35,881 nucleotides of DNA from a virus (taxonomy: Duplodnaviria > Heunggongvirae > Uroviricota > Caudoviricetes): IMG/VR virus record IMGVR_UViG_2541047915_000013, one strand, 5' to 3'. A program made the position numbers and the translations under genes. This document shows positions 698 to 35,299 of the stretch, piece after piece. The notes beneath the pieces are model-generated. The model did not search any database. It saw only the letters and a program-made list of their open reading frames with translations, and was not told the DNA's origin. The first letter of the stretch is position 1. Each line of letters starts with the position of its first letter.

Positions 698-1060
698 GGG
701 GCTGATTCTGGATTCGACGGGATTTGCGAAACCCAAGGTGCATGCCGAGGGGCGGTTGGCCTCGTAAAAAGCCGCAAAAAATAGTCGCAAACGACGAAAA
801 CTACGCTTTAGCAGCTTAATAACCTGCTTAGAGCCCTCTCTCCCTAGCCTCCGCTCTTAGGACGGGGATCAAGAGAGGTCAAACCCAAAAGAGATCGCGT
901 GGAAGCCCTGCCTGGGGTTGAAGCGTTAAAACTTAATCAGGCTAGTTTGTTAGTGGCGTGTCCGTCCGCAGCTGGCAAGCGAATGTAAAGACTGACTAAG
1001 CATGTAGTACCGAGGATGTAGGAATTTCGGACGCGGGTTCAACTCCCGCCAGCTCCACCA
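698..1060 (+). ncRNA. ssrA: tmRNA (transfer-messenger RNA), 363 nt
   Basis: Starts GGGGCTGATTCTGGATTCGACGGG and ends CGCCAGCTCCACCA; internal tag template GCAAACGACGAAAACTACGCTTTAGCAGCTTAA (787-819) encodes ANDENYALAA-stop. Confidence 0.95.
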
Positions 1061-1061
1061 A
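1016..1061. repeat. attL core: 46-bp direct repeat formed by the ssrA 3' end
   Basis: ATGTAGGAATTTCGGACGCGGGTTCAACTCCCGCCAGCTCCACCAA is identical to 35254-35299; identity breaks on both sides. Confidence 0.85.
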
Positions 1062-1070
1062 ATAAATCAA

Positions 1071-1103
1071 GGGGTTACGTGAAAGCGTAGCCCCTTTTTC
1101 TTT
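1071..1103 (+). terminator. Rho-independent terminator downstream of ssrA
   Basis: GGGGTTACG-tgaaag-CGTAGCCCC hairpin followed by TTTTTCTTT. Confidence 0.6.
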
Positions 1104-1118
1104 GGTAGTGGCGGCAAA

Positions 1119-1157
1119 ATGGCGACAGACTTTTGCGTCCATCTTGCCTGTCGCCAT
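1119..1157. promoter_or_regulatory. 10-bp inverted repeat upstream of the WYL-BRCT ORF (candidate operator)
   Basis: ATGGCGACAG (1119-1128) and CTGTCGCCAT (1148-1157), 19-bp spacer; AAGAGG ribosome-binding site at 1171-1176. Confidence 0.35.
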
Positions 1158-1183
1158 CTTGAAATCATGCAAAGAGGTTTCAC

Positions 1184-1666
1184 ATGGAAGAACTTCACTT
1201 TGTTTACATCAATGCAAATGGTCGTATCGGTGTTCACTCAATACAGAGCATCAGTTATAGCGAAAATCATATACAGGGCATTTGTAAGAACACCGATCGA
1301 ATAAAAACCTTCCGAAAAGACCGCATTCTTAAACAGTACGATTCACCAGAACAAGCCATTCAGGAATGCGCGTCATTCCTCCCCGAAAACTACTCACATC
1401 TCACTAAGCAGTCTGGTCCGAAAAAAAATACATTCGATGTGTGCTTCACCGGATTTAAGAAAGCAGATAAAGAAAGATTGGTTGATAAGGCGAATGAACA
1501 AGGATTAACGGTAAGAACCTCTGTAACCCAAAGCCTTCAGATGCTCTGTTGCGGTTACAATGCAGGCCCATCAAAAGTATCGGCAGCCAGGATGAAAGGC
1601 ACAATCATCATAGATGAGCCTGGCTTTATACATTTTCTTGAAACGGGTGAGATCCCAGATGAATAA
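1184..1666 (+). CDS. Hypothetical protein, WYL-like N-terminal domain fused to BRCT-like C-terminal domain (accessory gene)
   Basis: N-terminal FVYINANGRIG...RIKTFRKDRI resembles the WYL motif; C-terminal CFTGF...ERLVDKANEQGLTV...GPSKVSAARMKGTIIIDE resembles a ligase-type BRCT domain; good RBS. Confidence 0.6.
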   Translation: MEELHFVYINANGRIGVHSIQSISYSENHIQGICKNTDRIKTFRKDRILKQYDSPEQAIQECASFLPENYSHLTKQSGPKKNTFDVCFTGFKKADKERLVDKANEQGLTVRTSVTQSLQMLCCGYNAGPSKVSAARMKGTIIIDEPGFIHFLETGEIPDE

Positions 1667-1979: not shown

Positions 1980-3080
1980 TTATTCCATTTCAAGATCATC
2001 AATCTTCACTTCGAGTTCAATACTGGTTGTAAAACCGTTATCCGGGCTGACGGTATGTGTCAGAGTCGTAATGGTCCATTCCGCATCATCTATCGGCTGT
2101 TTAAAGCCACTGACTTTCACTGGCATTTCCGTGTAGAGATCTGCCCGACCTTCCGCCAGTTGTAGCGAGAATGACGCAACGCCGCGTTGCAGGCGTTCCC
2201 ACTGCATTTTCGCTGCCCGTTCAGCGTTGTTCCGGTTGGCATAAGTGCGATTAAGTACCAGCACGTTTTCATCCGTACCCACCAGGTAATCGCCCTGCTT
2301 CGCTTCCGGCTCTTTCTTCTGCTTTGCGGTCCTGCGCTTACGCTTCACCGTGGTGCTTTCTTTCTTCACGGGTTCGCGGGTATGCAACCAACTGGCAATT
2401 ACCCCCGTATAGGCTCCGCGATCTGCCAGGGTAAAGCGGTGACTGTCGCCGTCCTTGCGTGTGATAGTGATCACCGGCAGAGGTTTACCGCTGGCGCTTT
2501 TGCCCTGTCCCTGCCGGATGAATAACAGATTGCCATTTTTCACCGACGCAATAGCACCGTACTGGCGCGCCAGCCGCATCAGAAAACTGCCGTCACTCTC
2601 ATTGGTCTGGTCTATATGTTCCACGGGCTTATCCGACAGGTCTTTACCCAGTGCCATCTTCAGCTTGTGCCGCGCGGCTATTTCCTTCACCACTTCCCCG
2701 ACGGTGGTCTTGTGCCACGATTTTTCACGGCGGGTATTCAGCGTTTCCCTAAAATCAGCACTTCGCGCCCGGATAGTCAGGCGATCCGGTGCGCCAGTGT
2801 GTTCAATCTCGTCCACCGTGAATGCCCCTTTCGGGAAAAGCGGCTGCCCCTTCCAGCCCAGCGCCAGCGTGATGACCGCACCACGGCGCGGCAGCACGAT
2901 TTTTCCGTCGGCGTCGTCCAGCTCCAGATCAAGCTGGTCTGCTTCAAAGCCCCGATTGTCCGTCAACGTCAGACTCATCAGGCGGTTATCCAGCACAGTG
3001 GTGATATCCTTCCCCTCAATACTGATGCTGAATGCGGGAGTTTTGTTGCCTTTGTTAAGCAGTTCAGAGCTGAAATTCAC
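1980..3080 (-). CDS. D: Tail protein D (late control gene D)
   Basis: 366-aa ORF with P2 gpD-like sequence; position directly upstream of ogr. Confidence 0.9.
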   Translation of the reverse strand: MNFSSELLNKGNKTPAFSISIEGKDITTVLDNRLMSLTLTDNRGFEADQLDLELDDADGKIVLPRRGAVITLALGWKGQPLFPKGAFTVDEIEHTGAPDRLTIRARSADFRETLNTRREKSWHKTTVGEVVKEIAARHKLKMALGKDLSDKPVEHIDQTNESDGSFLMRLARQYGAIASVKNGNLLFIRQGQGKSASGKPLPVITITRKDGDSHRFTLADRGAYTGVIASWLHTREPVKKESTTVKRKRRTAKQKKEPEAKQGDYLVGTDENVLVLNRTYANRNNAERAAKMQWERLQRGVASFSLQLAEGRADLYTEMPVKVSGFKQPIDDAEWTITTLTHTVSPDNGFTTSIELEVKIDDLEME

Positions 3081-3562
3081 GACAGCAGCCCTCCCACCGT
3101 TTTACTGATATCGCTTAAGGCAGACGTTGCCGTATCCTGCAAATTATTCAGCTGCGCACTGAGATCACCGAACATATCGGACAGGGATTCATCCACACGT
3201 TTGAGCGACAGGGTAAACTCAATCCGGCGCGGCATACCATCGCGGAAAAACTCCGTTTTAGTCTGATTCAGTCCCTCAATCACATACATGCCGTAAATCG
3301 TGCCGCTGCCTTCAATCAGGGGCCATGCTTTTCCCTGTTCTGCCATCTGCTCCAGAGCCAGCAACGACAGCCTGCCGCCCGTTATCTCCGGCATAAGAAC
3401 ACCAGAAAGCGTCAGCATGTCGTTGTCCGGTCCCAGAAACTGCGTGGACGGACGACGGTTTACCCGGCTGTTTGCCGCATGTCGCCAGCTGCGTTGATAC
3501 TGCAGTTCCTGATACGGAACGGTGCTCAGCATAAACACGTACAATCCCAGCACCATCATCAT
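3077..3562 (-). CDS. U: Tail protein U
   Basis: 161 aa; 4-bp overlap with D and T; P2 gene order. Confidence 0.85.
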   Translation of the reverse strand: MMMVLGLYVFMLSTVPYQELQYQRSWRHAANSRVNRRPSTQFLGPDNDMLTLSGVLMPEITGGRLSLLALEQMAEQGKAWPLIEGSGTIYGMYVIEGLNQTKTEFFRDGMPRRIEFTLSLKRVDESLSDMFGDLSAQLNNLQDTATSALSDISKTVGGLLS

Positions 3563-6500
3563 GCGTCGTATCCCCCCTGATCGCTGTAGTTACTCCTGGC
3601 TTTTGCCTTCAGCCTGCGTTCACGTTCATCAAGCTGGCGTGCCACCTCCCGCGCAATATCCTGCGCACTTTGTCCTGGCTGCGTCTGAATGATGATCTGC
3701 GTCGGTGCCTCAATCCGGTGAACGGGCGGCACAGTGGCTGCACGACTCACCATCGCTTCGCCGCCTTTCGCGGGAAGTGCCAAAGGATGCAACGGTGGAA
3801 GCTCTGCAGGCGCGGCAGCAACGCCCATCATTCCGGCAACAACGGCAGCCAGTGCAGCTGTATTTCTCCGGCTGGTCACATTTGCCGGGCCGTTAACAAT
3901 TTCCGGCCCGTTTTCACCGACGATGCCAAACTGCCCGCGCGGGATATAGCCGCCGCTGTCATACATCCCCGCAAAGCCATATCCCCATGACGGAAAACCA
4001 CCCGATGGCATCATCACTTTACCGTCTGCATTCACCGTCGCAGGTTGCTGACGCGTCACTCTTTCCGGCAGTTTCGCCTTTGCAGCCTCTTTACTGACAA
4101 TGCCGAGTTTTTCCAGCAACCAGGAAACGCTGGATTTCAGGGAGTCCAGCGGATGCATGACCATATTCAGCCCTTCCGCCAGTGCCTCCCCGAATCGTCG
4201 CCCCATTGCCGCTGCGCTCTGCAGTTCGGCAGAGGTCGACTTAACGGGCGTCAGCAGATCAGTAAACCAGCCCCACAACGCCTGCACTTTGTCGCCAATC
4301 CACTGAAACACAGGCTTAAGTGGTTCGAATGCTGCACTGATGGGACCTGCCGCCGCTTTGAATCCTTCCACCACACCAGCGAGAAATGCGGTGATGGGTT
4401 GCCAGTATTTCCAGACAACCAGCGCCACGCCCGCCAGTGCAGTAACCACAAGACCTATCGGACTGAGCAGAGCACCTAACAGACCAGATATGGCATACAG
4501 GGCAACGCGCAGCATCGCCAGCGGACCGGATGCCAGTACTCGCAGCACCGAGCCTGCGGCAGCCAGTCCACCGCGTAGTGCCGCCAGTGGATTCATAAAC
4601 ATCACAGCAACAGCACGTAAACCGGATAATCCAGACCGCAACAGTGCAACCGGCACAACTGCTACAGTTTTCAGGACATTCCCCGTCAGTGATGCCGTGC
4701 GGCGCAAAGACGACAACGGCGCAGTAAGTAAACCCGCTGCGTTGCCCGATGAAGCAAGCCCGCGTCGCAGCAGTGCCAGTGGAGCGCCAGCTAACCAGGA
4801 CAACGCGCTGCTGGTTCGTGTTACTGCTGCCGTAACGGAAGATAACGTTTTGATACCCAGCACAGAGAATCCCAGACGGATGACTGCCAGCGGCCCCAGC
4901 ACTGCAGCCAGCGCCACCGCTAAGGTGCCGAGGCCTACGGTAACCGCAGCCACAATAGCGGCTACTTTCATCAGTGTGCCCGTCAGTTCCGGGTTAGCTT
5001 CCACCCAGCGACGCAACGCTCCCGTAACACTTTTCACCGTGTACAGAATATCCATCAGCGGCTGGCGCAGCGTTTCGCCCAGGCTACTGAAGGTGTTCTG
5101 CGTTCCGGTTTTGACCAGCAACCACTGAGCAGAAAGTGAGTCTTTGTTGATGTCGGATTCTTTCTGCATGGAACCGAGCGCATCATTGCCCGCTGTCAGT
5201 TTTAGCTGGCGCTGCAGTTCCGGCAGGTTGTTTGCCAGTTTCGCCGCGTCATCGCCAAACTCTTTGCCAAACAACATGGTCATGGCAGACAGACGCTTGT
5301 CCTGCGGCAGCGCGTTCACCTTCTCCAGCACACGCTGGATAGTTCCCATCGCATCCTTCGTCATCTGCTTTTCAATCACTTCAGGATTGAGTTTCAGCAG
5401 ATTCATCCCTTCAAAGAAACTCTTGCTTTGCATGGTGGCAATGGACAATTCACGCACCATCGCGTTTGCTGCACTGGCTGCAACCTCCGGCGCAGCGCCC
5501 AGTGTCAGAAAGGTGGAACCCAGCGCCGCCGCTTTACGATAATCCAGACGGTCAGCCACACCGCCCAGACGTTGCATGACATCAATAATGTCTGCCCCTT
5601 TCGACATGGCGTTATCATCCAGATAGTTCAGCGCATCACCGAGCTGTTCAATATTGCGGGTAGGGATTTTGTAGAGCTGGGCGATTTTCCCCAGACTTTC
5701 TGACAGTTCATCCGCTGGCAGCTCAAAGGCTGTTGCCGCCTTTGCTGCCGTACTGGCGAAGGCCAGCAGGTCACGTTTCTGGTCTTCCCAGCTGTCGTCA
5801 GGGTTTGCGACGTTCATGCGCGCACCACCTTCAACCAGTGCAGCGAAGTCTACCGCACCGTTTTCCATCGGCAACTGTTCGCTGGCAGCCTTGATGGCAT
5901 CCTGCATTTCATAAAAACGTGCAGTGCGGTTGCCATTATCGTCACGCAGACCATTGACCTGCTTTGCCACACCTTTCATGGCATCTTCCATGCTGGTATA
6001 GCTTTTTACTGCCGCCATCACTGGCGTCCCCATTGCCAGCCCTGCCGCCGTGGTGGTGGCTCCTGCTCCTGCGATGCGATCGCGCACCTCCAGCGAACGG
6101 GCATAACTGGCACGCGCCACATTCATCCTGCGCTGAGCTTCCCCCAGTCGCTTCAGCCGCGCCTCCTGTTTCGACAGTTCCTGGTTATAACGTGATGTTT
6201 CACGGGCTAAACGGGCAGTTGCTCCCGCATCATCTTTCGCAGAAATTCCCGCCCGGTACAGTTCAGCACGCACAAGCGCCGTTTGCTTCTGCAAATATTT
6301 TTGTTGTTCTTCCAGACGTTGGACTGCCAGCGTTTGCCGACCTAAAGCCACAAGATGCCTTTGTGATGGTTGTTCCATCGCCTCCAGCTCAGAGCTAAGC
6401 AAATTAGCCTTCTGTCTGGCATAGTTCAGCCTGTCGCCTAACTTCTTGTTATCGGCCTGCAGCTTGCGAAATTTTTCCAGGCTGTTACCCGCCTGATTGA

Positions 6501-6636
6501 GTTGCTTTAATGCGTCACGGGAGTTTCTGATTGCGCCAGCCAGCTCTTTCGAACTGGCCTGTGCAGCACGGAATGGGCGGGTGAGTTTGTCAACCGCATT
6601 AAGAATGACCTGCAGGCGCAGGTTGTTATCACTCAT
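3559..6636 (-). CDS. T: Tail tape measure protein T
   Basis: 1025 aa, Ala/Leu-rich with long helical and transmembrane-like segments; position after E/E'. Confidence 0.9.
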   Translation of the reverse strand: MSDNNLRLQVILNAVDKLTRPFRAAQASSKELAGAIRNSRDALKQLNQAGNSLEKFRKLQADNKKLGDRLNYARQKANLLSSELEAMEQPSQRHLVALGRQTLAVQRLEEQQKYLQKQTALVRAELYRAGISAKDDAGATARLARETSRYNQELSKQEARLKRLGEAQRRMNVARASYARSLEVRDRIAGAGATTTAAGLAMGTPVMAAVKSYTSMEDAMKGVAKQVNGLRDDNGNRTARFYEMQDAIKAASEQLPMENGAVDFAALVEGGARMNVANPDDSWEDQKRDLLAFASTAAKAATAFELPADELSESLGKIAQLYKIPTRNIEQLGDALNYLDDNAMSKGADIIDVMQRLGGVADRLDYRKAAALGSTFLTLGAAPEVAASAANAMVRELSIATMQSKSFFEGMNLLKLNPEVIEKQMTKDAMGTIQRVLEKVNALPQDKRLSAMTMLFGKEFGDDAAKLANNLPELQRQLKLTAGNDALGSMQKESDINKDSLSAQWLLVKTGTQNTFSSLGETLRQPLMDILYTVKSVTGALRRWVEANPELTGTLMKVAAIVAAVTVGLGTLAVALAAVLGPLAVIRLGFSVLGIKTLSSVTAAVTRTSSALSWLAGAPLALLRRGLASSGNAAGLLTAPLSSLRRTASLTGNVLKTVAVVPVALLRSGLSGLRAVAVMFMNPLAALRGGLAAAGSVLRVLASGPLAMLRVALYAISGLLGALLSPIGLVVTALAGVALVVWKYWQPITAFLAGVVEGFKAAAGPISAAFEPLKPVFQWIGDKVQALWGWFTDLLTPVKSTSAELQSAAAMGRRFGEALAEGLNMVMHPLDSLKSSVSWLLEKLGIVSKEAAKAKLPERVTRQQPATVNADGKVMMPSGGFPSWGYGFAGMYDSGGYIPRGQFGIVGENGPEIVNGPANVTSRRNTAALAAVVAGMMGVAAAPAELPPLHPLALPAKGGEAMVSRAATVPPVHRIEAPTQIIIQTQPGQSAQDIAREVARQLDERERRLKAKARSNYSDQGGYDA

Positions 6637-7065
6637 CGTTGGCCCCGCATCTCTGAATCGCTTTATACCGCCATTCCAGCACTTCGGTCAGCGGCATAAC
6701 GTCAGTAACGGATGGCGGCCAGTGAAAAATGGTGGCGATATCTGCCACCAGATCGTCAACCGTCAGGCTGTCGGTAAACCGGCAAGCACCGACTTCTTCA
6801 ACAAAAAAGTGACAACCTCAACCGACATGGCTGTGAGATCTGCCGGGTCCATCTCTGCGATTTCCTGTGCAGTCAGTGCCGGACTGGAGATGCGGGGGAT
6901 CACGGTCATCATCGCGTTCACATCCATATCCATAATGGCCTGCAGGCGTGTACCGCGCAGCGCACCGGACTGCGGTTTACGCAGCACAATTTCGGTAATT
7001 TCTGTTTTACCGCGCTTGATAGGGGTATCCAGTTGAATGGTCTTTTCAGTCTGCTTATCGCTCAT
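6629..7065 (-). CDS. E+E': Tail assembly chaperone E+E' (-1 programmed frameshift product)
   Basis: After the T TTT TTG heptamer the -1 frame stays open for about 58 codons (VEEVGACRFTDSLTVDDL...AIQRCGANDE) and stops at a TGA overlapping the T start codon. Confidence 0.7.
6763..7065 (-). CDS. E: Tail assembly chaperone E
   Basis: 100-aa ORF matching P2 gpE; contains the slippery site near its 3' end. Confidence 0.85.
   Translation of the reverse strand: MSDKQTEKTIQLDTPIKRGKTEITEIVLRKPQSGALRGTRLQAIMDMDVNAMMTVIPRISSPALTAQEIAEMDPADLTAMSVEVVTFLLKKSVLAGLPTA
6802..6808 (-). other. Slippery heptamer T TTT TTG for the E/E+E' -1 frameshift
   Basis: Minus-strand reading ACT TTT TTG in the E frame (plus strand CAAAAAA). 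Confidence 0.7.
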
Positions 7066-7119
7066 TTTGTTGTCCTGTAAATTGGGTTCTGGCGCGGAAT
7101 CCCGCGCCGTTCAGATACA

Positions 7120-7635
7120 TCAGAGGCCGAGGGCGTTGCGGTGCGCTTCCATCAGGTCCACACCGTCCACAATTTCCACCATGTTGATAAGGTCCACTTC
7201 ATAGAGCACCTCACCATTGATGGTCAGCTTCGCGTAGCTGTTGGTACTGGTCACTTTGGTGGTGTTGCTTTCGCCCGTCTTCCACTCGCCGGAATCTACT
7301 TCTTTGTGACGTCCACGCACGACAAGCTCCACGGCCTGCACTTCCCCGGTATCGTCACGCTGGATAGAGCCGGTAAAGCGCAGCTGGATGCCATCCACCG
7401 TGGATTTGCCCATCTGCTTAAACAGCAGCAGTTCAGTACCACCAATGGAAAATTCTGTATCCAGTGCACTGTCATCCAGTCCCAGATCCACATCCACCGC
7501 CCCCGGCATACCGCCGCCGCGATACTTCTCATATTTGCGGGTGAATTTCGGCAGCGTCAGCGACTCAACGATCCCCTGCCAGTTGTTCCCGTCGTTAAAC
7601 AAGTTCAGATGTTTTAATTTGCGTGGTAAAGCCAT
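7120..7635 (-). CDS. FII: Tail tube protein FII
   Basis: 171 aa, P2 gpFII-like. Confidence 0.9.
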   Translation of the reverse strand: MALPRKLKHLNLFNDGNNWQGIVESLTLPKFTRKYEKYRGGGMPGAVDVDLGLDDSALDTEFSIGGTELLLFKQMGKSTVDGIQLRFTGSIQRDDTGEVQAVELVVRGRHKEVDSGEWKTGESNTTKVTSTNSYAKLTINGEVLYEVDLINMVEIVDGVDLMEAHRNALGL

Positions 7636-7644
7636 GTTGTCCCC

Positions 7645-8951: not shown

Positions 8952-9554
8952 TTAAAATTCTGGTAGTTCGGGCCAGTTAATATCAGGGGCTGTGCTGATA
9001 TCTATTGCTGCTACCACGTCGATATAGTCAAGAACGGAATCGAGCTTTACTGTTTCTTCCGCAGTTAATTTTCTTCCCGCCTGCAATTTTAGTTGAATCA
9101 GAACAATGGAAGACATGGCATCATCAATCAGTGACTGGCGTTGCAGTTCAGCCCCTTCCACTGCTGCGTTATGTTGCGCTTTGGTATCCGTCACCCATTT
9201 CTCACCATCCCACTTATCGTATGGTGTTAACGGAGCAATAGTGGTTGTCTTTTCAGGGTAATCTCCCGGCACTGTGATTTCTTTTGAGTCCCCCGTTTCG
9301 GTGTTATAGACGATTTCACCGCGATGGTCTGGCACATATTCCCATGATCTCAAATCCAGAGTTCGACAGGACACATAACCTGACTTATATGAACCAGGAG
9401 CATCTAAACACGAATGTGCGGGAATACCGACGCCAACAGCAAGATATTCAGTTGATTCAGAAATATATTCCCGTGTTTCACCATCATAGTTATAGACGGT
9501 AATATTCCCCGCCTTCGTGGCAATAAGTTCGCTATTTAATACGGCTTTATCCAT
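8952..9554 (-). CDS. G: Tail fibre assembly protein (gpG-like)
   Basis: 200 aa directly downstream of the tail fibre gene. Confidence 0.8.
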   Translation of the reverse strand: MDKAVLNSELIATKAGNITVYNYDGETREYISESTEYLAVGVGIPAHSCLDAPGSYKSGYVSCRTLDLRSWEYVPDHRGEIVYNTETGDSKEITVPGDYPEKTTTIAPLTPYDKWDGEKWVTDTKAQHNAAVEGAELQRQSLIDDAMSSIVLIQLKLQAGRKLTAEETVKLDSVLDYIDVVAAIDISTAPDINWPELPEF

Positions 9555-13603: not shown

Positions 13604-13639
13604 AGGGAAAGGTTGCCATCAGGGGAAGAAAGGCGGCAG

Positions 13640-13657: not shown

Positions 13658-13671
13658 TGCTGATACAAAAA

Positions 13672-25293: not shown

Positions 25294-25337
25294 TGCCCGC
25301 TTTATGTAGTGGTTTTCATGCACCTGCATGATCTACG

Positions 25338-26083: not shown

Positions 26084-28498
26084 TTAATACAGGTTCCGCC
26101 ACTGATCATCTTCCTGCAAACGCTGGTTCCGATAGAAGATACGCAGGCCTGCTCCTGACGGAATACTGCCTCCGCGAAGGAGTAAATCGACCTCTTTCTC
26201 GCTGCCATCAAATCCTCTGGACTTCAGCTCATACACGAGCTGCAGTCGCTGATGGTCTGTAATTCGCTGTTTGTAGTCTTTACGCCGTTTCGGTTTCACC
26301 TGGCGTAACCTTGCAGCCAGTTCCCGGCGCTCTTTTTTGCTCATACTGTGCAGGTAATCGTGCAACTCCTTGTCATTCATACAGGTAATATCCGTTCTGG
26401 AGTCCCCATCAGCTGATTTGTCTTTCCCTTGTTGGTTCAAATTTTCAGCAAGGGGACAGTTATTGCCACGAGTCCAAGGGGCGCAAGCGCCCTGGTCGGC
26501 TGCCGCCTCCTGAACGTCAACGGCCTTACGAACTATTTTCCACTTCACTGCATGAGTGCAGATCTTGCCCTCTGCAATGGGTGACCAGATGCCATAAATA
26601 CGAATGCCGTGATCGCCATAGGCGGTCGGCTCTTCGTTGATTTCATAAGCGGTTCTGATCAGGTGATATTTGCGGGGAACCAGTACGCCGCCCTGCTTCA
26701 TGATGTAGGTGGCAAAACAACCAGCATCAGCAGCAGCCAGGATTGCATCAAGGCGCGGGTTATCCAGTACCGGCGCACCTGCTTTTTTGTCCCCCTGTTG
26801 CCTTGCCGCCTGACCAGCCAGCAATCGCAGTTCACGGTAAGCCTGACGCCCCGGAATGCCAAAGAAGCGGAATTGCTGAACACGATGCAGAGACGCCCAG
26901 GCATTAACGTATTCAGCGTTATCACGCAGGGATTTACCCGTTTCCTTGCTGATCTCGCCAGCCAGACCACGCCCGTCAATGTTCTTACTAATGTATTTCG
27001 CGATGTAGCTTGTCGGCGTTCCTTTGCGCGGGTTAATCAACTCAGACTTAAAGCGCGGCCCTGTGTTATTGCCCAGCTCCTCGCGGTCTTCACGGATGGC
27101 AAACTTACGCAGTAATGCAGTGATGGCGCGGCGGTCTTTTTTGCGCATAAAACACAACAGGTGCCAGTGAACTGTACCGTCATGATGCGGCTCAGCCACC
27201 CGCACGCCATACCACCGCAATCCGGCTTTGTGCATCGCCTTACGAAATGCAGCAAACATGCCGACCAGATAATCACTGCTTTGTCTTACCGTCGCATTTG
27301 TCCAGGTTGGGTTGGGCCTGCCGTTATTTAGCGTGGAATGGAAACGTGACGGACAGGTGATGGTGTAGAAAACGGCGCAGTCACCGCGCATTTCCGCGAT
27401 AAGCTCCAGACCTTTAACACAGGCCATCATCTCATTGCGGCGATGCGCAGGGTTGCTGCTGCTGGCGTTTACCACATCTTCCATATCCAGCGTGTCGCCG
27501 TCTTCGTTCACCAGTTCATGAGAACGAAAAAACTCCAGCGACTTACGGCGCTGCTCACGTTTATGCATCACGGCTTCATAGCTGACATAGGGGGATGCTT
27601 TTTTGCTGACCAGGCAGACAGCACGCAACTGCTCTTCCCGCCATTCGCAACGCATCTTCCATAATTTCCGATACCACCAGTCGGCACACAACATACGCGC
27701 CAGCGAACCCGGAATGAGTTCATAGGGCACGGGTTTACGGCGGTTTCTTTTCCGACGGAGTTGCTCAAACGCAGGCGGAATAACATCCAGACGCAGGGTT
27801 TCCGCTGCCACCTTTTCCCATGTTTTGCGGATTTCTTCTGGCTTAACGTCATCGGTGGCATACAAATCGCCACAAGCTGCATCAAGACACATGCTCATAT
27901 GCGCAGCAACAAGGGTGGACAGGCGTTTCACCTGATCCTGACTCATTTCAGGCAGGATCAGCAGGCCGTCCAGCCCTTCATGGCTTGCCATAAAGCGAAA
28001 AGAAGTGGATAGCTGACTCTCGCGTACATGCTCCAGTCGTTCCAGACATGGCTTAATCGTCTCACGCAAATAGCGGGAATAAGCCTTTGGCCTGCCCAGG
28101 CTGCTGAAGTATTCAATACGTTGCATCAGCGGCTTGCTGATATGGGAAGGCTGGGCGTTGACGTCCGCCAGAATGACCATGTCTGGATTAAAACGCTGCT
28201 GCTCATGCGCCAGCTTTGCCCGGCTAATGAGCTTATCCTGCTCCATTTCGCGCTGGACAGGATCACGGGATTCATTAAAGAAATAACGCTCCCAGACCTG
28301 ATCACTCAGTGCCTCACGGCGCAGTTGTTCCTGCTCGTTATCGGCAGCGTACAGAGTGATCAGGTTTGAAAGCGCAGAAACCGGCGCAACTTCCGCCGGG
28401 TCCAGATAAGGGTTAATAGCCTTTTTCGGGCTGTTCCATGAGAATGCTGCGGCGGCCTCGTTAAAGCCGCTGCAGTTGTTCATATCAGCATGGCTCAT
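26084..28498 (-). CDS. A: Replication initiation endonuclease A (rolling-circle initiator)
   Basis: 804 aa; HxH motif (VHWHLL) and YIAKYISK tyrosine motif; gpA-like. Confidence 0.9.
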
Positions 28499-29352
28499 GC
28501 ACGCACTCCGTACACGGCAGAACTATCCACGCCACGCGAAGGATCAAATCCCACCCAGCAGCGCGCCCCAGAAACAGCGATGATTTCTGTTGCAGATTTA
28601 CTCTCACCAGCTGCTACGCCGATGCTGCGTTTTGCCTTGATGTAGTGGTGAGTAAAATTGCGATACAGCGAACGGATCAGGGATGTGTCACTGTTAGAAA
28701 CAATGACCGGATGTCCTTCTGATGACCGATGTTCAAGAACGGATGCCAGGTGATACTGGTCATCTTCAGTGAAGCCGTCAGTGTGATAACCGGAAAACGT
28801 GCCGTCATACGGCGGATCGCAATACACCACATCCCCCGCCTTCAACATCGCCAGCGTTTCATCAAAGCTGGCGCAGATAAACGTTGCCCGCTGGGCTTTC
28901 TCTGCAAATGCGCGAATTTCTTTTTCAGGGAAATACGGATTTTTATAATTACCGTAGGGAATGTTGAAATACCCGCTCTTGTTATAGCGACATAACCCAC
29001 GGTAACCATGACGATTGAGATACAGAAAATATACCGCTTTCATGAAATCAGTAATTTCAGTGGAGTAATTAAACTTCTGCCTTATGTTGTAATAAGCCAC
29101 CTCCCTGTTTGCTTCCTCAAATAAAGCTCTGGCACGAGATATAAATGCCTCACAATCAGCAGCAACCTTTTTATAGAGGTTGATTAAATCAGGATTAATA
29201 TCCGCAACAAGATAGCTGGGGTAATCCGTCTCCATCATCACAGCACAGGAACCCGCGAAAGGTTCAACCAGTCGCGGGCCAGCAGGAAGGTGTTTTTTCA
29301 GTTCGGACATAATGGCGGTTTTATTTCCCGCCCATTTCAGGATGGTGCTCAT
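28495..29352 (-). CDS. dam: DNA adenine methyltransferase (Dam-like, N6-adenine)
   Basis: N-terminal SAM-binding region and DPPY motif (YCDPPYDG); start set at the ATG at 29352 ([11 protein letters not shown]). Confidence 0.8.
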
Positions 29353-29576
29353 ACAGCACCTCCGTTGTAATGTTTGCCTTTCAGCTCTGCAATTTCCTGG
29401 CAGGTAATGCAAAGCTGCACACCCGGAATGGCACGGCGGCGTGCTGGCGGAATTGGCGCTTCACACTCAATGCAAAGCACGCGAGACACGCCCGGTGTTT
29501 TGGCACGGGCAGCACGGATATGGCGCTGGCGTTCTTCTTCAACGCGCTGCTGTACGAGATCCATTGCATCAGCCAT
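29349..29576 (-). CDS. TraR/DksA-family C4 zinc-finger protein
   Basis: CIECEAPIPPARRRAIPGVQLCITCQ motif. Confidence 0.7.
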   Translation of the reverse strand: MADAMDLVQQRVEEERQRHIRAARAKTPGVSRVLCIECEAPIPPARRRAIPGVQLCITCQEIAELKGKHYNGGAV

Positions 29577-29815
29577 TAGTGGATCTCCTGCGCTTCGTTC
29601 TGGATTGCTTCAGCAGTCACACGCAGCAGTTCTGCCGCTTCCACGTGGTTTAGCTGACGGGATGAGATATGACACGCCAGGCTATCAAGGCGAGCTGCCA
29701 TTGCTTCAGCCCTTGCCCGGCGTTCTTCCAGACGAGCCTCTGTCAGTAAAATATTAAGCCCTGCATCATCCGGTCCGGTTTTAGTCGTGAGGATTTCAAT
29801 ATTACGCATAATCAA
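29576..29815 (-). CDS. Hypothetical early protein
   Basis: 79-aa ORF in the early operon, tightly packed with neighbours. Confidence 0.5.
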   Translation of the reverse strand: MIMRNIEILTTKTGPDDAGLNILLTEARLEERRARAEAMAARLDSLACHISSRQLNHVEAAELLRVTAEAIQNEAQEIH

Positions 29816-29876
29816 TTCTCCTGAATTTAGATAAAGGGATGCCCGGCGGGTTTACGCCATTAATTTCATTAGTTGG

Positions 29877-30218
29877 TTAATTCGGCATGGTTAGCCGTCT
29901 GGGAAATAAGCTCACCACTGCACGAAAATGATTCATTGCTTTAATCAACTCCCGCTTTTCGTCAGTGGTCAGCTCATTGATGCTGATGCTATGACGTTCA
30001 GCCGGAATTTTTGCCATAAAGAATATGGCTGCCAGTGCTCGTTTATTTTGTTCGTTATTGATATCCCGTGGATCACGCATATCTTTAATAAACCGCTCAA
30101 GCTCTGACTCAATATTCAGGCCAAAAACTTTCGCCCTTAATTCCGCTATGTGATTAAGTCCATTCAGGCGTTCACCGGGGCTTAATGGAACAGTCGCCGC
30201 AGCGCCTTCAATAGCCAT
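29877..30218 (-). CDS. Hypothetical early protein
   Basis: 113-aa ORF in the early operon. Confidence 0.5.
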   Translation of the reverse strand: MAIEGAAATVPLSPGERLNGLNHIAELRAKVFGLNIESELERFIKDMRDPRDINNEQNKRALAAIFFMAKIPAERHSISINELTTDEKRELIKAMNHFRAVVSLFPRRLTMPN

Positions 30219-30382
30219 TTGTTCCCCCGTTTTTTCGTAGATAGTTCTGCCAGCAATTCATCTTGTGAACGGCACGGATGCCAGCGTTTACCATCCTCAC
30301 CCATGATCCAGCCGTGACCGTAGTACATTGCCGGACTTTGTTTTACCAGCAGCGATGCAAATGATGGTTCTTTCGTCAGCAT
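30182..30382 (-). CDS. Hypothetical early protein (positionally like the 186 fil/dhr region)
   Basis: ORF open to 30412; internal ATG at 30382 chosen to avoid deep overlap with cII. Confidence 0.4.
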   Translation of the reverse strand: MLTKEPSFASLLVKQSPAMYYGHGWIMGEDGKRWHPCRSQDELLAELSTKKRGNKWLLKALRRLFH

Positions 30383-30389
30383 AAGCACC

Positions 30390-30899
30390 TCACAGCAAAC
30401 CGAATGAAGCACCGAGGCCGGTTACAGTATCAACTGCACTTGCCATCGCAGGATTAACCTGTAAACGGGCCTGCAATGAAACAGCAGCTAACGCCATCAG
30501 TCGTGTAACAGAGTTAATGCTGCTGATAGCATCACGACGACCTGCACTGGTTTTTACATCGCCAGATACCGCACCTGCAGCAACACGCCCGATCTCTGCG
30601 GTTGCACTCATGACGTAATGTGGCAGTTTCTCTTTTGCCACCTCATTAATCGGTACACATGGCAGGCAGTGAATCTGTGCCAGAAAACCGTCTACCAGCG
30701 TTGAATCTTCCGTCAGATCGGTAAGTAGCCAGATATCTGGCGCATTGAGCTGATGCGGTTGATCTGGGTTGAGTTTGTTTCGCAGAGTCTGGACATTCAT
30801 TCCTGAACGTTCTGCCAGCTTCGCCATATTGTGACGAAGTGCAAAAGCTCTACAGGCTTCATCAAAATGCGGGTGTTTGGAAATCTTATAATCAAACAT
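30390..30899 (-). CDS. cII: Phage regulatory protein CII (186 CII-like)
   Basis: 169 aa; N-terminus MFDYKISKHPHFDEACRAFALRHNMAKLAERSGMNVQTLRNKLNP closely resembles 186 CII. Confidence 0.85.
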   Translation of the reverse strand: MFDYKISKHPHFDEACRAFALRHNMAKLAERSGMNVQTLRNKLNPDQPHQLNAPDIWLLTDLTEDSTLVDGFLAQIHCLPCVPINEVAKEKLPHYVMSATAEIGRVAAGAVSGDVKTSAGRRDAISSINSVTRLMALAAVSLQARLQVNPAMASAVDTVTGLGASFGLL

Positions 30900-30931
30900 G
30901 CTACCCCCTTAGAAAGTTCTCATAATTGAAC

Positions 30932-31174
30932 TTACTTACCAACAATGACGCGGAAGTTGGAATGACCGAGGGATTCACGGACCTGATCGGTTTTGTACAT
31001 TAAATAACGCAGGCTTACGCGGCCTTTGTTTTTTTCTTTCTTGACCATGTATTTAGCAAGCTGACCATGATGAATTTTTTGATACACAGAGCCGCGGGAG
31101 ATACCTTCCCATTCCGCGAACTCTGCAGGCGTAGCCATCTCTTTTGGTACACGAATTGAAATATCAGTGCTCAT
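30932..31174 (-). CDS. apl: Apl/Cox-like excisionase-regulator (helix-turn-helix)
   Basis: 80-aa helix-turn-helix protein, first gene of the lytic operon, divergent from cI. Confidence 0.55.
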   Translation of the reverse strand: MSTDISIRVPKEMATPAEFAEWEGISRGSVYQKIHHGQLAKYMVKKEKNKGRVSLRYLMYKTDQVRESLGHSNFRVIVGK

Positions 31175-31293: not shown

Positions 31294-31926
31294 ATGATAC
31301 AGGTAAAGGTTGGAGAGAATACAGGGGGAAGAGAGGCTATCCATAGACTAATGGCAGCCTATGATTTCAAGTCCAGACAGCAACTTTGCGATCACTTAGG
31401 CGCATCAAAAAGTACCATGGCAAACAGATACTTAAGAGATAGTTTTCCTGCAGAGTGGGTGATTCAGTGCGCCTTGGAAACAGGAGTTTCTTTACTGTGG
31501 CTAACCACCGGACAGGGGGAGCCAGGTCCAAACATTGAACCTAAAAAAAATATCAATTCCGTGAACTCCAGCAAGGTTGTACCTCTTTCTGAACTAGTAT
31601 CTCCTGAAATTGACAAGGCGACTCTCAACGGTGGTTTATTGGTCGATGCTGGAAAAGCAATCATTGATAGCAGCATACTCCCCTCAGACTCAAGCAACCT
31701 ACTGCTGGTGACTACTTCTGGTGATTCTTATTTAATAGATCGCAACCAAACACCACCAGTAAATGGTATGTGGTTAGTCGATATTGACGGGATAAAAAGC
31801 ATTGTTAAATTGACTCGACTTCCGGGAAACAAATTAGTAGTGCATCAGGATGATTCATCGTTTGAGTGTGGCCTAGATGACATTGAGGTAGTAGGCCGCG
31901 CACTGAAAATCATTAAGAGCCTTTGA
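31294..31926 (+). CDS. cI: CI-like immunity repressor
   Basis: 210-aa protein with N-terminal helix-turn-helix-like region; co-oriented with int. Confidence 0.7.
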   Translation: MIQVKVGENTGGREAIHRLMAAYDFKSRQQLCDHLGASKSTMANRYLRDSFPAEWVIQCALETGVSLLWLTTGQGEPGPNIEPKKNINSVNSSKVVPLSELVSPEIDKATLNGGLLVDAGKAIIDSSILPSDSSNLLLVTTSGDSYLIDRNQTPPVNGMWLVDIDGIKSIVKLTRLPGNKLVVHQDDSSFECGLDDIEVVGRALKIIKSL

Positions 31927-31927
31927 T

Positions 31928-32944
31928 ATGACCATCAGAAAACAGCCGAACGGAAAATGGTTGTGTGAGTGCTATCCCAATGGACGCAATGGTAAGCGCG
32001 TGCGTAAGCAATTTGCTACGAAAGGCGAAGCCATTGCTTTTGAAAGCTTCACAATGGAAGAAGTGAATAAAAAACCGTGGTTGGGTGAAAAGGATGATCG
32101 GCGACGCCTATCAGAATTAATTGAGCTTTGGTATTCCCTGTATGGTCAGACACTCGCAGACCCCAAGCGCCTCATGGCGAAACTTAGAATTATCTGTAAT
32201 GGTCTAGGCGACCCCATCGCCTCAGAACTGACAGCCGGTGACTTTACGAAATACCGCGAAGCACGGTTAAAAGGTGACGTTCGTAACGAAGACGGCACAC
32301 TAATGTCGCCAGTAAAACCACGCACGGTGAATCTTGAGCAACGTAACCTATCATCGGTTTTCGGCACATTGAAAAAACTAGGCCACTGGTCAGCACCAAA
32401 TCCTCTCGCCGGGCTGCCAACATTTAAAATCGCTGAGGGGGAACTGGCGTTCCTGACCTCGGAAGAAATTAAACGTCTGCTAGATGCCTGCGCTGATTCT
32501 CAAAACCCCAGTCTGCTTTTGATTGCAAAAATATGCCTGGCCACCGGCGCACGCTGGAGTGAAGCTGAAAACCTGCAGGGCCATCAGTTATCTAAATACC
32601 GCATCACTTATACCAAGACGAAGGGTAAGAAAAACCGCACCGTGCCGATATCTCAAGATCTGTATGACGAACTCCCCAAGAACAGAGGGAAGCTATTCAC
32701 CCCGTGCAGAAAAGCCTTTGAACGAGCAGTAAAGCGAGCTGGCATCGAGCTGCCAGAGGGCCAATGCACTCACGTGCTACGTCATACATTCGCCAGCCAT
32801 TTTATGATGAATGGCGGAAACATACTGGTGCTGCGCGATATTCTGGGCCATGCCGATATAAAAATGACGATGATTTACGCCCACTTTTCGCCCGATCACC
32901 TTGAAGATGCGGTAACTAAAAACCCTTTATGCAACTTAAGATAG
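31928..32944 (+). CDS. int: Tyrosine integrase (P2/186 family)
   Basis: 338 aa; ...ATGARWSEA..., ...HVLRHTFASHFMMNGG... and ...MIYAHF motifs typical of P2-type integrases. Confidence 0.9.
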   Translation: MTIRKQPNGKWLCECYPNGRNGKRVRKQFATKGEAIAFESFTMEEVNKKPWLGEKDDRRRLSELIELWYSLYGQTLADPKRLMAKLRIICNGLGDPIASELTAGDFTKYREARLKGDVRNEDGTLMSPVKPRTVNLEQRNLSSVFGTLKKLGHWSAPNPLAGLPTFKIAEGELAFLTSEEIKRLLDACADSQNPSLLLIAKICLATGARWSEAENLQGHQLSKYRITYTKTKGKKNRTVPISQDLYDELPKNRGKLFTPCRKAFERAVKRAGIELPEGQCTHVLRHTFASHFMMNGGNILVLRDILGHADIKMTMIYAHFSPDHLEDAVTKNPLCNLR

Positions 32945-33260
32945 AGTAACTTATGAAAACAAACTCAAACTATTTACAAATATAATATTCAGCAGGTTAT
33001 CCATTCTCATTTAACTCTTCAGACTGAGTTTAGGTTTTATTTATAGAATAAGATAATTTTTACATCACAAAAAAACCTATAAGCCCTCATCTTTGTTGTA
33101 TAAAAACATCAAAGATGCCACATTCAAAAATAGTAGAAAAGCATAGCATTGCAACATTAAAAAGAAACCAATAAAAAACAGTCATTAGAAAATGAAAAAA
33201 ACAAAAACATTTTTTATCGAAGCTTCAGTCTGACTACTAGTTTGACTCTGCAATTAACTT

Positions 33261-33290
33261 TCAAGATGATCAATATTTATTGATCATCTT
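33261..33290. repeat. Perfect 13-bp inverted repeat (hairpin) carrying two GATC sites
   Basis: CAAGATGATCAAT-attt-ATTGATCATCTTG, 35 bp beyond the deaminase stop. Confidence 0.7.
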
Positions 33291-33324
33291 GAAGCTTACC
33301 TCAGGAAGGATGAGTATAATATTT

Positions 33325-35058
33325 CTACTCAAGGAGATATTCTAACTCATCTTTTATCGGGATAATTTGCTCATAAAGTCGGTGATATGACTTCCCAATT
33401 GCGCCTCTAAATTGTATTAACTTTGGTGGCTTACTACCTATATTAATAATATGGTCTTGAGCTATACCTGGGTAGGGATCAATAAATACAATTTCAGATA
33501 TACCTAACTGATAAGCTTTTTTCGCACACAACTCACAGGGACTGGCAGTTGTATACAACTTCCCCCCCAGAACGCCAATACCACCATATTTTGCAAGTTG
33601 CAAAAATGCGTTTTCCTCAGCATGTAATGCACGTGTATGAACTTGATTACCTTTTTTCTCTTTATCAAGATCATTATGTATATCTTTAAAACAATAAGAT
33701 AAGTTCCTGCCTCTATAAATATCACCAGTTTTATCTATCGCCCTAAAATTTAAGAGTTTCTCATTAGCTTTAATTCTGAAAGAACTATTATTTCTCTCAT
33801 AATGACTGTACGTTTTTTCATCAAAATCGTTCATTAGGCCATCTAGAGATCTCATAGAGCAAGGAATCTGACCGTTGGCAACATCATTCCAACCAACTGA
33901 TTTTATTGAATTATCACCATCAGTTACTACAGCTCCCACCTGTCTAGATATACAGCCAGAGTTTAATTTTACCGTATACGCAACTTGCATAACCCTTTCC
34001 ATTGCAGTAGGTGTTATCAGACCAGGATGCTTCATCAGTGCGATGTACCACGCTAATTGTGCTTTTAAAATATTGTCATTATCAAATTCATTTTTTGGGT
34101 TAAAAATGTGTATATCTGATAGTTCAATACATTTAGTTACATTTGGATTGGTGAGATGTTTGTAAGAGTTATCACCTTTACCTGACTCTACAGAATCTAT
34201 TTCCTCTATCTGCTTTTCTGAAAACTTATGTAGTTTCCGCAAATAGTTTGTTCGATGTTCATCCGGGGCATTTATTGACATTAAATGAAATGCAGAATAT
34301 CTATCCTTAAAAAATTTTGCCTCATATGGATTTCTAATAGCATCTATGACAATTAATGCGTTATCTCTTTTGCTTTTTCTTATTAATTTAATAACCCTAT
34401 TAATAGTTTCCGGCAAATGAAAAACAGATTTAGGCATAAACTCTTTATCTTCAAAATCGACTTCAATACGCCCACGACGTCTAATTGACTTACCTGCTAA
34501 CTGATAGGCTGAAACATATAAATTTGAGTTTATCTCATTTAGTTCAGCTTTGAATTCTTTAGTAAATTTTCTAACTAACTTCAAAATTGATATAAATTTA
34601 TTAATCGTTTTTTCATCAAGCTTCAATTCACTATTATGATCAAGCAAATTCTCAATTACATTTTTAAATCTTGTCAAAATGAGATTATCTGAGAATACAC
34701 CAAAAGTTAATACAATATCTAAATGCTCTTTACTGATAGATTTATTAGATGATAGAATGAATTCAGAAGCTTCCTCAGCTGTTAACATCAGAAGATACGC
34801 TGAGATTAGGTCACTCACCTTAATTGAGTAAAAATTTTCCCAGTGATTTTCTGCGAATTTTTTAACTATATTATAACGATGGACATCCAATCCCTTGTAA
34901 AACCCCTGTAATTTACTTACATCAGGGAAGACTGTTTTTTCGTTTTCAAGAATATTAGCTGTTGTTGTGCAACCAGAACCAGTTCGACCTGTCAAACCGA
35001 CTAAAATAAACTGCCCATTTTCAAGGAAAAGCTCACTAACGAATTTTTTTTCTTTCAT
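33325..35058 (-). CDS. P-loop kinase-like / cytidine deaminase fusion protein (AvcD/dCTP-deaminase-like accessory gene)
   Basis: N-terminal P-loop GRTGSGCTT; C-terminal deaminase zinc motifs HAEENA and SPCELC; ATG at 35058; about 30% GC. Confidence 0.7.
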   Translation of the reverse strand: MKEKKFVSELFLENGQFILVGLTGRTGSGCTTTANILENEKTVFPDVSKLQGFYKGLDVHRYNIVKKFAENHWENFYSIKVSDLISAYLLMLTAEEASEFILSSNKSISKEHLDIVLTFGVFSDNLILTRFKNVIENLLDHNSELKLDEKTINKFISILKLVRKFTKEFKAELNEINSNLYVSAYQLAGKSIRRRGRIEVDFEDKEFMPKSVFHLPETINRVIKLIRKSKRDNALIVIDAIRNPYEAKFFKDRYSAFHLMSINAPDEHRTNYLRKLHKFSEKQIEEIDSVESGKGDNSYKHLTNPNVTKCIELSDIHIFNPKNEFDNDNILKAQLAWYIALMKHPGLITPTAMERVMQVAYTVKLNSGCISRQVGAVVTDGDNSIKSVGWNDVANGQIPCSMRSLDGLMNDFDEKTYSHYERNNSSFRIKANEKLLNFRAIDKTGDIYRGRNLSYCFKDIHNDLDKEKKGNQVHTRALHAEENAFLQLAKYGGIGVLGGKLYTTASPCELCAKKAYQLGISEIVFIDPYPGIAQDHIINIGSKPPKLIQFRGAIGKSYHRLYEQIIPIKDELEYLLE

Positions 35059-35253
35059 CACGTCCCACTTATGAATGCAAGAACAATTAACATATTAATT
35101 GTAATTTATTAACTAATTTTATTCTAGATACTTGATGTAATGGCGGCACTTTGGCGGCAGAGCATTAAAAACGCGTAAGACGAGCAAATACAAAATAACA
35201 CTAACACATTGTTTTCAAACATAATCTACTGTTTTTACTATAATAAAAATGGT

Positions 35254-35299
35254 ATGTAGGAATTTCGGACGCGGGTTCAACTCCCGCCAGCTCCACCAA
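35254..35299. repeat. attR core: second copy of the 46-bp ssrA 3'-end repeat
   Basis: Exact copy of 1016-1061; not a second tmRNA gene, only the terminal 46 bp. Confidence 0.85.

Follow-up and report, generated by a model that had tools for sequence, protein, structure and literature searches.

Does the DNA inserted in the transfer-messenger RNA (tmRNA) gene ssrA of IMG/VR record IMGVR_UViG_2541047915_000013 (Caudoviricetes) amount to a complete phage, and could it carry its accessory genes to other hosts? The window, that is, the whole stretch of 35,881 nucleotides analysed here, had been described in a sequence-only reading as holding an apparently complete and probably inducible P2/186-family prophage able to move a Lamassu-like gene pair, a deaminase fusion and a WYL-BRCT gene. 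Our comparisons suggest, with a probability of about 80%, that positions 1062-35299 represent the prophage of a temperate myovirus (family Peduoviridae) that is genetically complete, belongs to the Fels-2/PSP3/Cartapus lineage (Elveevirus-like) and is endowed with a 186-type lysogeny switch. It is apparently an ordinary, well-delimited and functional prophage of the Fels-2/Cartapus type, carrying known cargo.

Integration into the tmRNA gene

The window contains one full-length tmRNA gene, called by both ARAGORN and Rfam, with smpB upstream of it (1-483). The final 45 nt of ssrA (1016-1060) come from the prophage-side copy of the att core. This core, 46 nt long, occurs as two identical direct copies, one at each end of the insertion (Table 1), and the window has no other long repeat; an exact 46-mer is effectively impossible by chance in 36 kb. 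To the right of the second copy, 582 bases are 100% identical to Escherichia coli chromosomes, for instance that of strain ATCC 11775, in which this flank directly follows ssrA without any insert. In a three-way alignment, the empty attB of ATCC 11775 can be assembled from the sequence left of the core in attL, the 46-bp core itself and the sequence right of it in attR. Given that the empty site matches both junctions, the insert is the product of a clean site-specific integration and measures 34,238 bp. The core duplicates the 3' end of the tmRNA gene, which is restored upon integration, as is characteristic of ssrA-integrating elements. Thus, the earlier claims that the repeats are exact and that ssrA is reconstituted together with its tag template are both borne out.

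The attP arms are retained outside the cargo cassettes. Positions 1040-1128, covering the ogr-side arm, are 97.8% identical to positions 1-89 of Fels-2, and positions 35140-35277, covering the int-side arm, are 84.8% identical to Fels-2 33556-33693. Repeated motifs of the GGCGGCA type are present in both conserved stretches. In the lysogen, the rho-independent terminator of ssrA (1069-1096, 12-bp stem) consists of phage-arm sequence, and the WYL-BRCT gene lies directly downstream of it, on the same strand as ssrA.

Gene complement and cis-acting sites

All annotated proteins of 186 and P2 were run by tblastn against the window. Full-length homologues, with 30-69% amino acid identity, were found for every essential structural, packaging, lysis, replication and regulatory gene. 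These comprise the portal, both terminase subunits, scaffold, capsid, head completion protein, X, LysB/LysC, R, S, V, W, J, I, H (N-terminal part), sheath, tube, E, E', tape measure, U, D and ogr/B, as well as, among the early and lysogeny genes, Int, 186 CI, Apl, CII, Fil, the DksA-like protein and A; the excisionase (Apl) call derives from PHROGs. The holin, endolysin, LysA-like protein and fibre-assembly protein are non-homologous replacements relative to 186 and P2, and were recognized by PHROGs. The lengths of the open reading frames (ORFs) equal those of the coding sequences predicted by the NCBI pipeline PGAP in the prophage of strain VG888-46E9, none of which is flagged as a pseudogene. 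Furthermore, base-by-base comparison with VG888 over window positions 10218-35299 (~25 kb) revealed a single indel, located in lmuB. Across the whole-genome comparison with 186 and P2, no essential gene is missing or truncated. Accordingly, the statement of the sequence-only reading that the expected genes are all intact holds for the phage genes, on the strength of the homologues and the VG888 lengths, but does not extend to the cargo, in which lmuB is frameshifted.

The late region includes the expected cis-acting elements. The slippery sequence TTTTTTG for the E/E' frameshift is present, and Ogr-type TGT-N12-ACA dyads precede the O/P, V and FI operons, with that of the divergent O/P late promoter region at position 19558. 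The Ogr homologue itself scores 112.5 bits (E 9.7e-33) against NCBIfam PRK09678, just under the cut-off of 116. The 19-nt cohesive-end sequence, GGCGTGGCGGGGATACGAG, aligns across the joined right and left ends of 186 and is identical in Fels-2 and in Klebsiella phage Kp4845-2. Overall, the head and packaging block (Q-P/O-N-M-L), the P2-type tail, the ogr-type activator, the gpA endonuclease and the P2-type 19-nt cos near the portal gene place the element within the Peduoviridae, and the PGAP product names in VG888 are in agreement. The switch region is of the 186/Fels-2 type: it encodes a CI with Phage_CI_repr and Phage_CI_C domains, Apl, CII (CP76) and, downstream of A, a LexA-boxed tum/DinI operon, in which the LexA box is followed by a 62-aa ORF and then by a 77-aa DinI-like ORF. 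In 186, the counterpart of this box is the LexA site at p95. The DinI-like protein is 43% identical to residues 71-145 of 186 Tum and 96.1% identical to Fels-2 DinI.

Table 1. Coordinates of the prophage features and flanking sites in the window
Feature	Position	Strand	Evidence or remark
ssrA (tmRNA), tag ANDENYALAA	698..1060	+	ARAGORN; Rfam RF00023, 295.8 bits, model 1-374
attL core, left copy of 46-bp repeat, 3' end of ssrA	1016..1061		three-way alignment with ATCC 11775 empty attB
ogr-side attP arm with phage-supplied ssrA terminator and GGCGGCAAAATGGCGAC arm-type repeats	1062..1128		Fels-2 comparison
WYL-BRCT protein, 160 aa (phrog_2561)	1184..1666	+	homology searches, PHROGs, predicted structure
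ogr / 186 B-type late-gene activator, 72 aa	1693..1911	-	67% identical to 186 B
Tail operon D, U, T, E + E', FII, FI	1980..8817	-	tblastn vs 186/P2; VG888 lengths
Tape measure T	3559..6636	-	within tail operon
G (fibre assembly), H (fibre), I/J/W/V (baseplate), S/R (tail completion)	8952..14563	-	tblastn, PHROGs, VG888
Lysis cassette: LysC, LysB, LysA-like protein, endolysin, holin	14505..16150	-	PHROGs; tblastn; VG888 PGAP names
Endolysin	15442..15954	-	within lysis cassette
Holin	15935..16150	-	within lysis cassette
X, L (head completion), M (small terminase), N (capsid), O (scaffold)	16154..19479	-	tblastn
P (large terminase) and Q (portal)	19622..22419	+	tblastn
lmuB, SMC-like ATPase of type I Lamassu, +1 frameshift	22460..24134	-	PADLOC LmuB PDLC00255
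A8 run (T8 on coding strand), cause of the frameshift	23874..23881		VG888 has A7
lmuA, Cap4-type dsDNA nuclease effector, intact	24109..25188	-	Pfam PF14130, 1.4e-33; PADLOC LmuA, 4e-143
cos, 19-nt cohesive-end sequence GGCGTGGCGGGGATACGAG	25276..25294	-	186 ends; Fels-2, Kp4845-2
DinI-like protein (TumB equivalent), 77 aa	25498..25731	-	Pfam DinI, 5.8e-23
Upstream half of split tum, 62 aa, candidate antirepressor	25742..25930	-	Fels-2 STM2728, 96.8%; phrog_698; role from PMC3121763
LexA box CTGTTTATATTTACAG, 44 bp upstream of tum operon start codon	25974..25989		perfect CTGT-N8-ACAG
Early lytic operon: Apl, CII, Fil, DUF5347, DUF2732, TraR/DksA, Dam, A	26084..31174	-	Pfam, PADLOC, tblastn, PHROGs, VG888
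Replication endonuclease A	26084..28498	-	early operon
Dam methylase	28495..29352	-	early operon
Apl	30932..31174	-	early operon
Lysogenic operon: CI and integrase	31294..32944	+
186-type CI	31294..31926	+	Pfam PF07022 + PF16452
Tyrosine integrase	31928..32944	+
Anti-phage dCTP deaminase, P-loop N-terminal region and dCMP-deaminase-like domain	33325..35061	-	NCBIfam NF041025; PADLOC dCTPase; Pfam PF00383
int-side attP arm with TGGCGGCACTTTGGCGGCAG arm-type repeats	35140..35253		Fels-2 comparison
attR core, right repeat copy, displaced ssrA 3' end	35254..35299		repeat; three-way alignment

Relatives and classification

Similarity to known phages was estimated with blastn as nucleotide identity multiplied by aligned fraction, which approximates but is not the official VIRIDIC value. 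On this measure, the prophage shares 15.8% with P2, 16.6% with 186, 62.5% with Fels-2, 73.5% with Cartapus and 97% with the VG888-46E9 prophage. Under the usual genus criterion of the International Committee on Taxonomy of Viruses (at least 70% nucleotide identity over the genome length), the approximate value for Cartapus lies above the line for membership in Elveevirus, whereas that for Fels-2 falls short of the line for Felsduovirus. With only ~16% similarity to P2 and 186, the label 'P2/186-family' applies at the family level alone; this part of the earlier description and the ssrA site stand, but a closer kinship does not, the nearest named relatives being Cartapus, Fels-2 and PSP3.

Cartapus (Elveevirus cartapus, NC_070909), prophage 4 of E. 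coli LF82, aligns with 77.5% of the prophage at 94.9% identity. The two share the gene order, the WYL-BRCT gene between attP and ogr (98.8% identity), Dam and a split tum; Apl is 100% and Int 93% identical, whereas CI is only 52% identical. The cargo of Cartapus is different: its cos-portal slot encodes a DUF4145 protein, its DinI-cos interval holds two hypothetical genes, and a RES-domain protein is encoded between int and attP. A further gene occupies the S-V gap of Cartapus, a phage that also has alternative fibres together with a Gin-type invertase, none of which is found in the window; instead, the window carries Lamassu and the dCTP deaminase, and its tum-cos and S-V slots are empty. Fels-2 resembles the window in its integration into ssrA, the same att core and arms, the identical cos and the 186-type CI, Apl and CII, and its Int is 93% identical to that of the window. 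As in the window, tum is under LexA control in both Fels-2 and PSP3 and is divided in two, with one half for the antirepressor and the other for DinI (PMC3121763). However, Fels-2 has no cargo at either attP flank and has cargo on both sides of cos. The early region of 186 is of the same type as that of the window (CI, Apl, CII, Fil, DksA-like protein, A, Tum/DinI), but 186 integrates into ileY and P2 elsewhere, and the C/Cox/B module of P2 is absent from the window. The tail-fibre module (8817-10217) has no Gin/Cin invertase or alternative fibre segment, unlike those of VG888, Fels-2 and Cartapus, and the fibre C-terminus and assembly protein encoded there differ from their counterparts in all three.

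The prophage of VG888 is 99.5% identical to that of the window over 25 kb, yet the host chromosome differs on both sides. Compared with the window flanks (1-1015 and 35300-35881), VG888 has indels in the smpB-ssrA spacer and is unrelated on the right beyond position 35450, and the right flank of the window is 100% identical to that of several other strains, including ATCC 11775 and NU14. Klebsiella phage records match at 96% identity and contain the same Lamassu cassette. The occurrence of near-identical prophages behind different flanks and in another bacterial genus argues for recent mobility of the lineage. Near-identical prophages with the same annotations are already present in RefSeq.

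Accessory genes and their positions

Comparison with Fels-2 and Cartapus outlines three cassettes, at 1129-1664, ~22330-25267 and ~32926-35139, all of which have a low G+C content. The last ~30 codons of the portal gene (22329-22419) and the last ~6 codons of int (32926-32944) diverge from those of Fels-2 and Cartapus at the cargo junctions, indicating that the cassette exchange points lie inside the 3' ends of core genes. In total, the cargo consists of a type I Lamassu system (cos-portal), a dCTP deaminase (int-attP), Dam (early operon) and the WYL-BRCT gene (attP-ogr).

The 'deaminase fusion' of the sequence-only reading is present, but it is not a novel protein. It scores 425.4 bits against NF041025 (equivalog cut-off 400) and matches the PADLOC dCTPase profile at 1.2e-145, and its translation contains the zinc motifs HAE (HAEENA) and PCxxC (PCELC) along with an N-terminal P-loop. 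By its sequence, it is an anti-phage dCTP deaminase of the known kind with no notable difference. Neither Fels-2 nor Cartapus has the cassette encoding it. This AT-rich gene contains a further perfect CTGT-N8-ACAG site, CTGTCTAGATATACAG (33940-33955), which probably reflects chance. The Dam-type orphan N6-adenine methylase, identified with Pfam and PADLOC, is encoded just upstream of A; it is an accessory gene missing from the earlier cargo list, and Fels-2 and Cartapus each have one.

The cos site is located between lmuA and the DinI gene. The 40-bp gap between portal and lmuB, where cos would be predicted from its placement in P2 and 186, contains only a hairpin; cos is found beyond the Lamassu pair, which therefore fills the cos-portal slot, at the left end of the packaged genome, and begins (22460-25188) ~26 bp past the cos cut-site homology. 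On the other side, the tum-cos slot (25295-25497) is empty, whereas it is filled in P2 (old/tin), 186 (orf97), Fels-2 (STM2726) and Cartapus (gp46-47). Two further positions are vacant: the G-FI gap, which holds Z/fun in P2, spans 134 bp, and the S-V gap, which holds orf30 in P2 and gp14 in Cartapus, spans 68 bp, ruling out cargo of the Z/fun or orf30 type. Both attP flanks carry cargo in the window, and neither does in Fels-2. Hence, the earlier view that all accessory positions around attP and cos are occupied is correct for the attP flanks but not for cos, which has cargo on the portal side only.

The positions agree with published hotspots. Rousset et al. (2022; PMC9122126) described the cos-proximal gpA-gpQ defence hotspot of P2-like phages, and a survey of thousands of P2-like prophages in Nucleic Acids Research (2026; PMC13586616) lists gpA-gpQ, int-att (3% of systems), int-primase (8%) and the tail region. 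The Lamassu system of the window corresponds to gpA-gpQ, the dCTP deaminase to int-att and Dam to int-primase; the survey passage on defence hotspots cited here does not name the att-ogr slot, which holds the WYL-BRCT gene. Both papers treat gpA-gpQ as one locus, whereas in the window it is divided by cos, with cargo on the portal side only. Lamassu, the dCTP deaminase, integration into ssrA and the hotspots, including int-att, are all already established.

The WYL-BRCT gene

The cassette at 1129-1664, which contains the WYL-BRCT gene, is absent from Fels-2. The gene represents a family of proteins of ~160 residues (122 hits), and homologues within phrog_2561 have been given the erroneous names DNA ligase or exonuclease. 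The BRCT domain is assigned with confidence. Pfam BRCT was detected in 39 of 44 sampled members, and the family profile matches the BRCT domains of RFC1 (3.4e-5) and LigA (5.9e-5) with the FTG and AGpsK motifs aligned, in keeping with the TG ... G-x-AG-x-K motif of the RFC1/LigA subclass; the window protein itself scores 19.5 bits against Pfam BRCT, under the cut-off of 21.3. The WYL assignment is tentative, with support at the family level only, the domain (PF13280) being matched by 5 of the 44 members with a best E-value of 1.5e-5. In the window protein, the N-terminal 55 residues have no Pfam WYL match and are predicted to form a five-strand beta domain, for which a PafBC match at rank 16 (E 4.7e-3) is the single WYL support from Foldseek. 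Thus, of the name given to this gene in the sequence-only reading, the BRCT half is confirmed and the WYL half has some support at the family level.

Homologues of similar length (~160 aa) are encoded by P2-like phages of Escherichia, Yersinia, Vibrio, Burkholderia and Mannheimia. In Yersinia ruckeri, Xenorhabdus bovienii, Serratia ficaria and Mannheimia phage PHL101, the gene directly follows the repressor gene on the same strand, mostly before int; in Pantoea, Cartapus and the window, it is found just across attP, beside ogr. In the LF82 transcriptome, expression of the Cartapus gene annotated 'putative exonuclease protein' exceeds the prophage background 15-fold, and that of CI 5-fold (PMC9928086). 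The name applies only to gp32, the 98.8%-identical orthologue, and the 15-fold expression is thus that of the WYL-BRCT orthologue. By analogy with Cartapus, the window gene would be a lysogen-expressed moron. A simple sigma-70 scan upstream of it found no consensus promoter, and a search for literature combining BRCT, WYL and prophage returned nothing relevant.

These observations fit the possibility that the gene has long been an accessory part of the lysogeny module in P2-family phages and, in this lineage, has changed sides at attP; it would then serve lysogeny or DNA transactions of the phage rather than being horizontally acquired defence cargo. We consider the chances of this explanation to be even. 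It would account for the homologues of ~160 aa in P2-like phages of five genera, for the location of the gene after the repressor or between repressor and int on the same strand (Y. ruckeri, Xenorhabdus, Serratia and Mannheimia PHL101) and for the high transcription of the Cartapus orthologue in the lysogen. However, the gene is absent from Fels-2, 186 and P2, and is therefore dispensable; one distant homologue resides in a non-P2 integrase island beside an Mrr-type nuclease and a DNA methylase, and the PADLOC match to the candidate defence system PDC-S48 is at the level of the BRCT domain only.

BRCT domains of the RFC1/LigA subclass bind 5'-phosphate DNA ends, and from this subclass we infer that the WYL-BRCT protein might do likewise. 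A bolder and rather unlikely proposal is that it acts as a lysogenic-conversion factor, expressed in the lysogen, in which the BRCT and WYL-like domains recognize DNA ends or junctions between single- and double-stranded DNA. This idea is prompted by the conservation of the gene in P2-like phages of Gamma- and Betaproteobacteria, its placement after cI or at attP and the 15-fold expression in the Cartapus lysogen. Such a protein may act on incoming linear phage genomes or their cohesive ends.

A frameshift in the Lamassu system

The effector gene lmuA is intact. Its product matches positions 1-360 of the 361-residue PADLOC LmuA profile and is the Cap4/DUF4297 nuclease typical of type I Lamassu. 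The lmuA and lmuB genes overlap, in the two-gene arrangement of type I systems; a three-gene Lamassu with LmuC was rejected, as there is no room for another gene between the portal stop codon and lmuB, or upstream of lmuA before cos. By contrast, type I systems have one continuous LmuB ORF with both halves of the ATPase head, and in the window lmuB is split between two frames. An 89-aa ORF matches profile positions 2-81 (1e-39), and a 476-aa ORF in another frame matches positions 79-549 (1e-208). The break follows ~82 codons, just past the Walker A motif (profile position ~80). Removal of one base yields a 552-aa LmuB that is 99.3% identical to the uninterrupted ORF of Klebsiella phage Kp4845-2. 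With a 201-bp query across the A-run, all 11 complete E. coli genomes with the cassette proved to have one base fewer, and together with the Klebsiella record, each of the 12 relatives checked is one base shorter at this run. Judging from these sequences, the frameshift is private to the window and results from either a genuine mutation that inactivates the gene or one miscalled base in the homopolymer; as sequenced, LmuB is probably inactive, and the Lamassu pair cannot be regarded as intact.

If the frameshift were an error of sequencing or assembly, Lamassu would be intact and the claim that all genes are intact would extend to the cargo. This explanation is tenable, although we do not favour it. 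The change consists of one extra base that turns A7 into A8, a classic site of length miscalls, and the uninterrupted 552-aa LmuB of Klebsiella and the shorter run in 11 of 11 E. coli genomes are consistent with an error. However, it is the sole indel in ~25 kb relative to VG888, which suggests that the assembly is not generally prone to homopolymer errors, and homopolymer runs are also true mutational hotspots. It is also plausible that a self-toxic abortive-infection system would be lost, which likewise counts against a miscall.

Lysogeny, induction and mobility

The sequence shows that the tyrosine integrase recombined the 46-bp attP core with the 3' end of ssrA, rebuilding the tmRNA gene and supplying it with a new terminator. 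For the rest of the life cycle, Fels-2, PSP3 and 186 serve as models. Lysogeny would be maintained by CI. Following DNA damage, LexA would leave its box upstream of the tum operon, and the 62-aa Tum half would inactivate CI. Apl and Int would then excise the circle, which A would replicate; Ogr would switch on the late operons, and the P/M terminase would cut at cos and package ~34.2 kb. All of the cargo is located inside the att sites and would therefore be packaged and travel with the phage. In this respect, the predicted movement of cargo with the prophage is supported, with the limitation that the Lamassu pair is not intact as sequenced. The role of the 62-aa ORF is modelled on the work of Lemire et al. 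(2011; PMC3121763), who report that tum is split by a stop codon in Fels-2 and PSP3 and that the upstream half is the antirepressor. That article also cites a study according to the title of which a lexA null mutation is lethal in Salmonella because of Fels-2. The LexA box and the split tum operon give inducibility a specific footing, which the sequence-only reading had not named. As for particles, DNase-protected (encapsidated) genomes of Cartapus appear spontaneously at ~3.3e5 per mL (PMC9928086).

Several points weigh against a complete and inducible prophage. BLASTP failed to align the 62-aa ORF with the N-terminal half of 186 Tum; assignment through homology to 186 Tum was dropped, and the assignment is based on the 97% identity to STM2728 together with the literature. 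CI is only 52-58% identical to the CI proteins of Cartapus and Fels-2, whereas TumA is 97-98% and Apl 100% identical, which suggests that the immunity type is a different one while the antirepressor and excisionase are shared, and this antirepressor may not be matched to this CI. A simple sigma-70 scan at the tum operon found no consensus promoter. Virions of Cartapus are scarce and no indicator host was found for it (PMC9928086), and Cartapus is not among the LF82 prophages reported as ciprofloxacin-induced. Finally, sequence cannot reveal missense or regulatory defects, and the lmuB frameshift reflects either the decay of one or more genes or errors in the assembly.

Some of these points (the private frameshift as a sign of decay or error, the diverged CI beside an undiverged TumA, and the few virions and missing indicator host of Cartapus) would suit a cryptic prophage that lost excision, replication or particle formation through point mutations or a mismatched repressor and antirepressor and remained as a fixed defence island, but this is improbable given that the essential genes are all untruncated, only one indel separates the element from its nearest relative over 25 kb, there is no damage to cos, the attP arms or the late-promoter dyads, and the same prophage occurs behind different chromosomal flanks and in another genus. 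Overall, the genetic completeness of the prophage is well supported by its sequence, and its SOS inducibility, which we infer from its relatives, is plausible.

Implications

The prophage adds no new principle, as it combines two known defence systems in published P2 hotspots. Nevertheless, the position of cos parts what has been called the gpA-gpQ hotspot into two slots, of which one is filled, and this bears on models of cargo swapping near cos. With lmuB broken here and intact in 12 relatives, defence predictions for this strain should omit Lamassu unless the base call is checked. The WYL-BRCT gene is widespread in P2-family phages and its Cartapus orthologue is expressed, making it a cheap candidate for a defence or lysogeny screen; if the proposed recognition of DNA ends were true, the protein might exclude superinfecting phages in a novel way or control DNA transactions of the phage itself.

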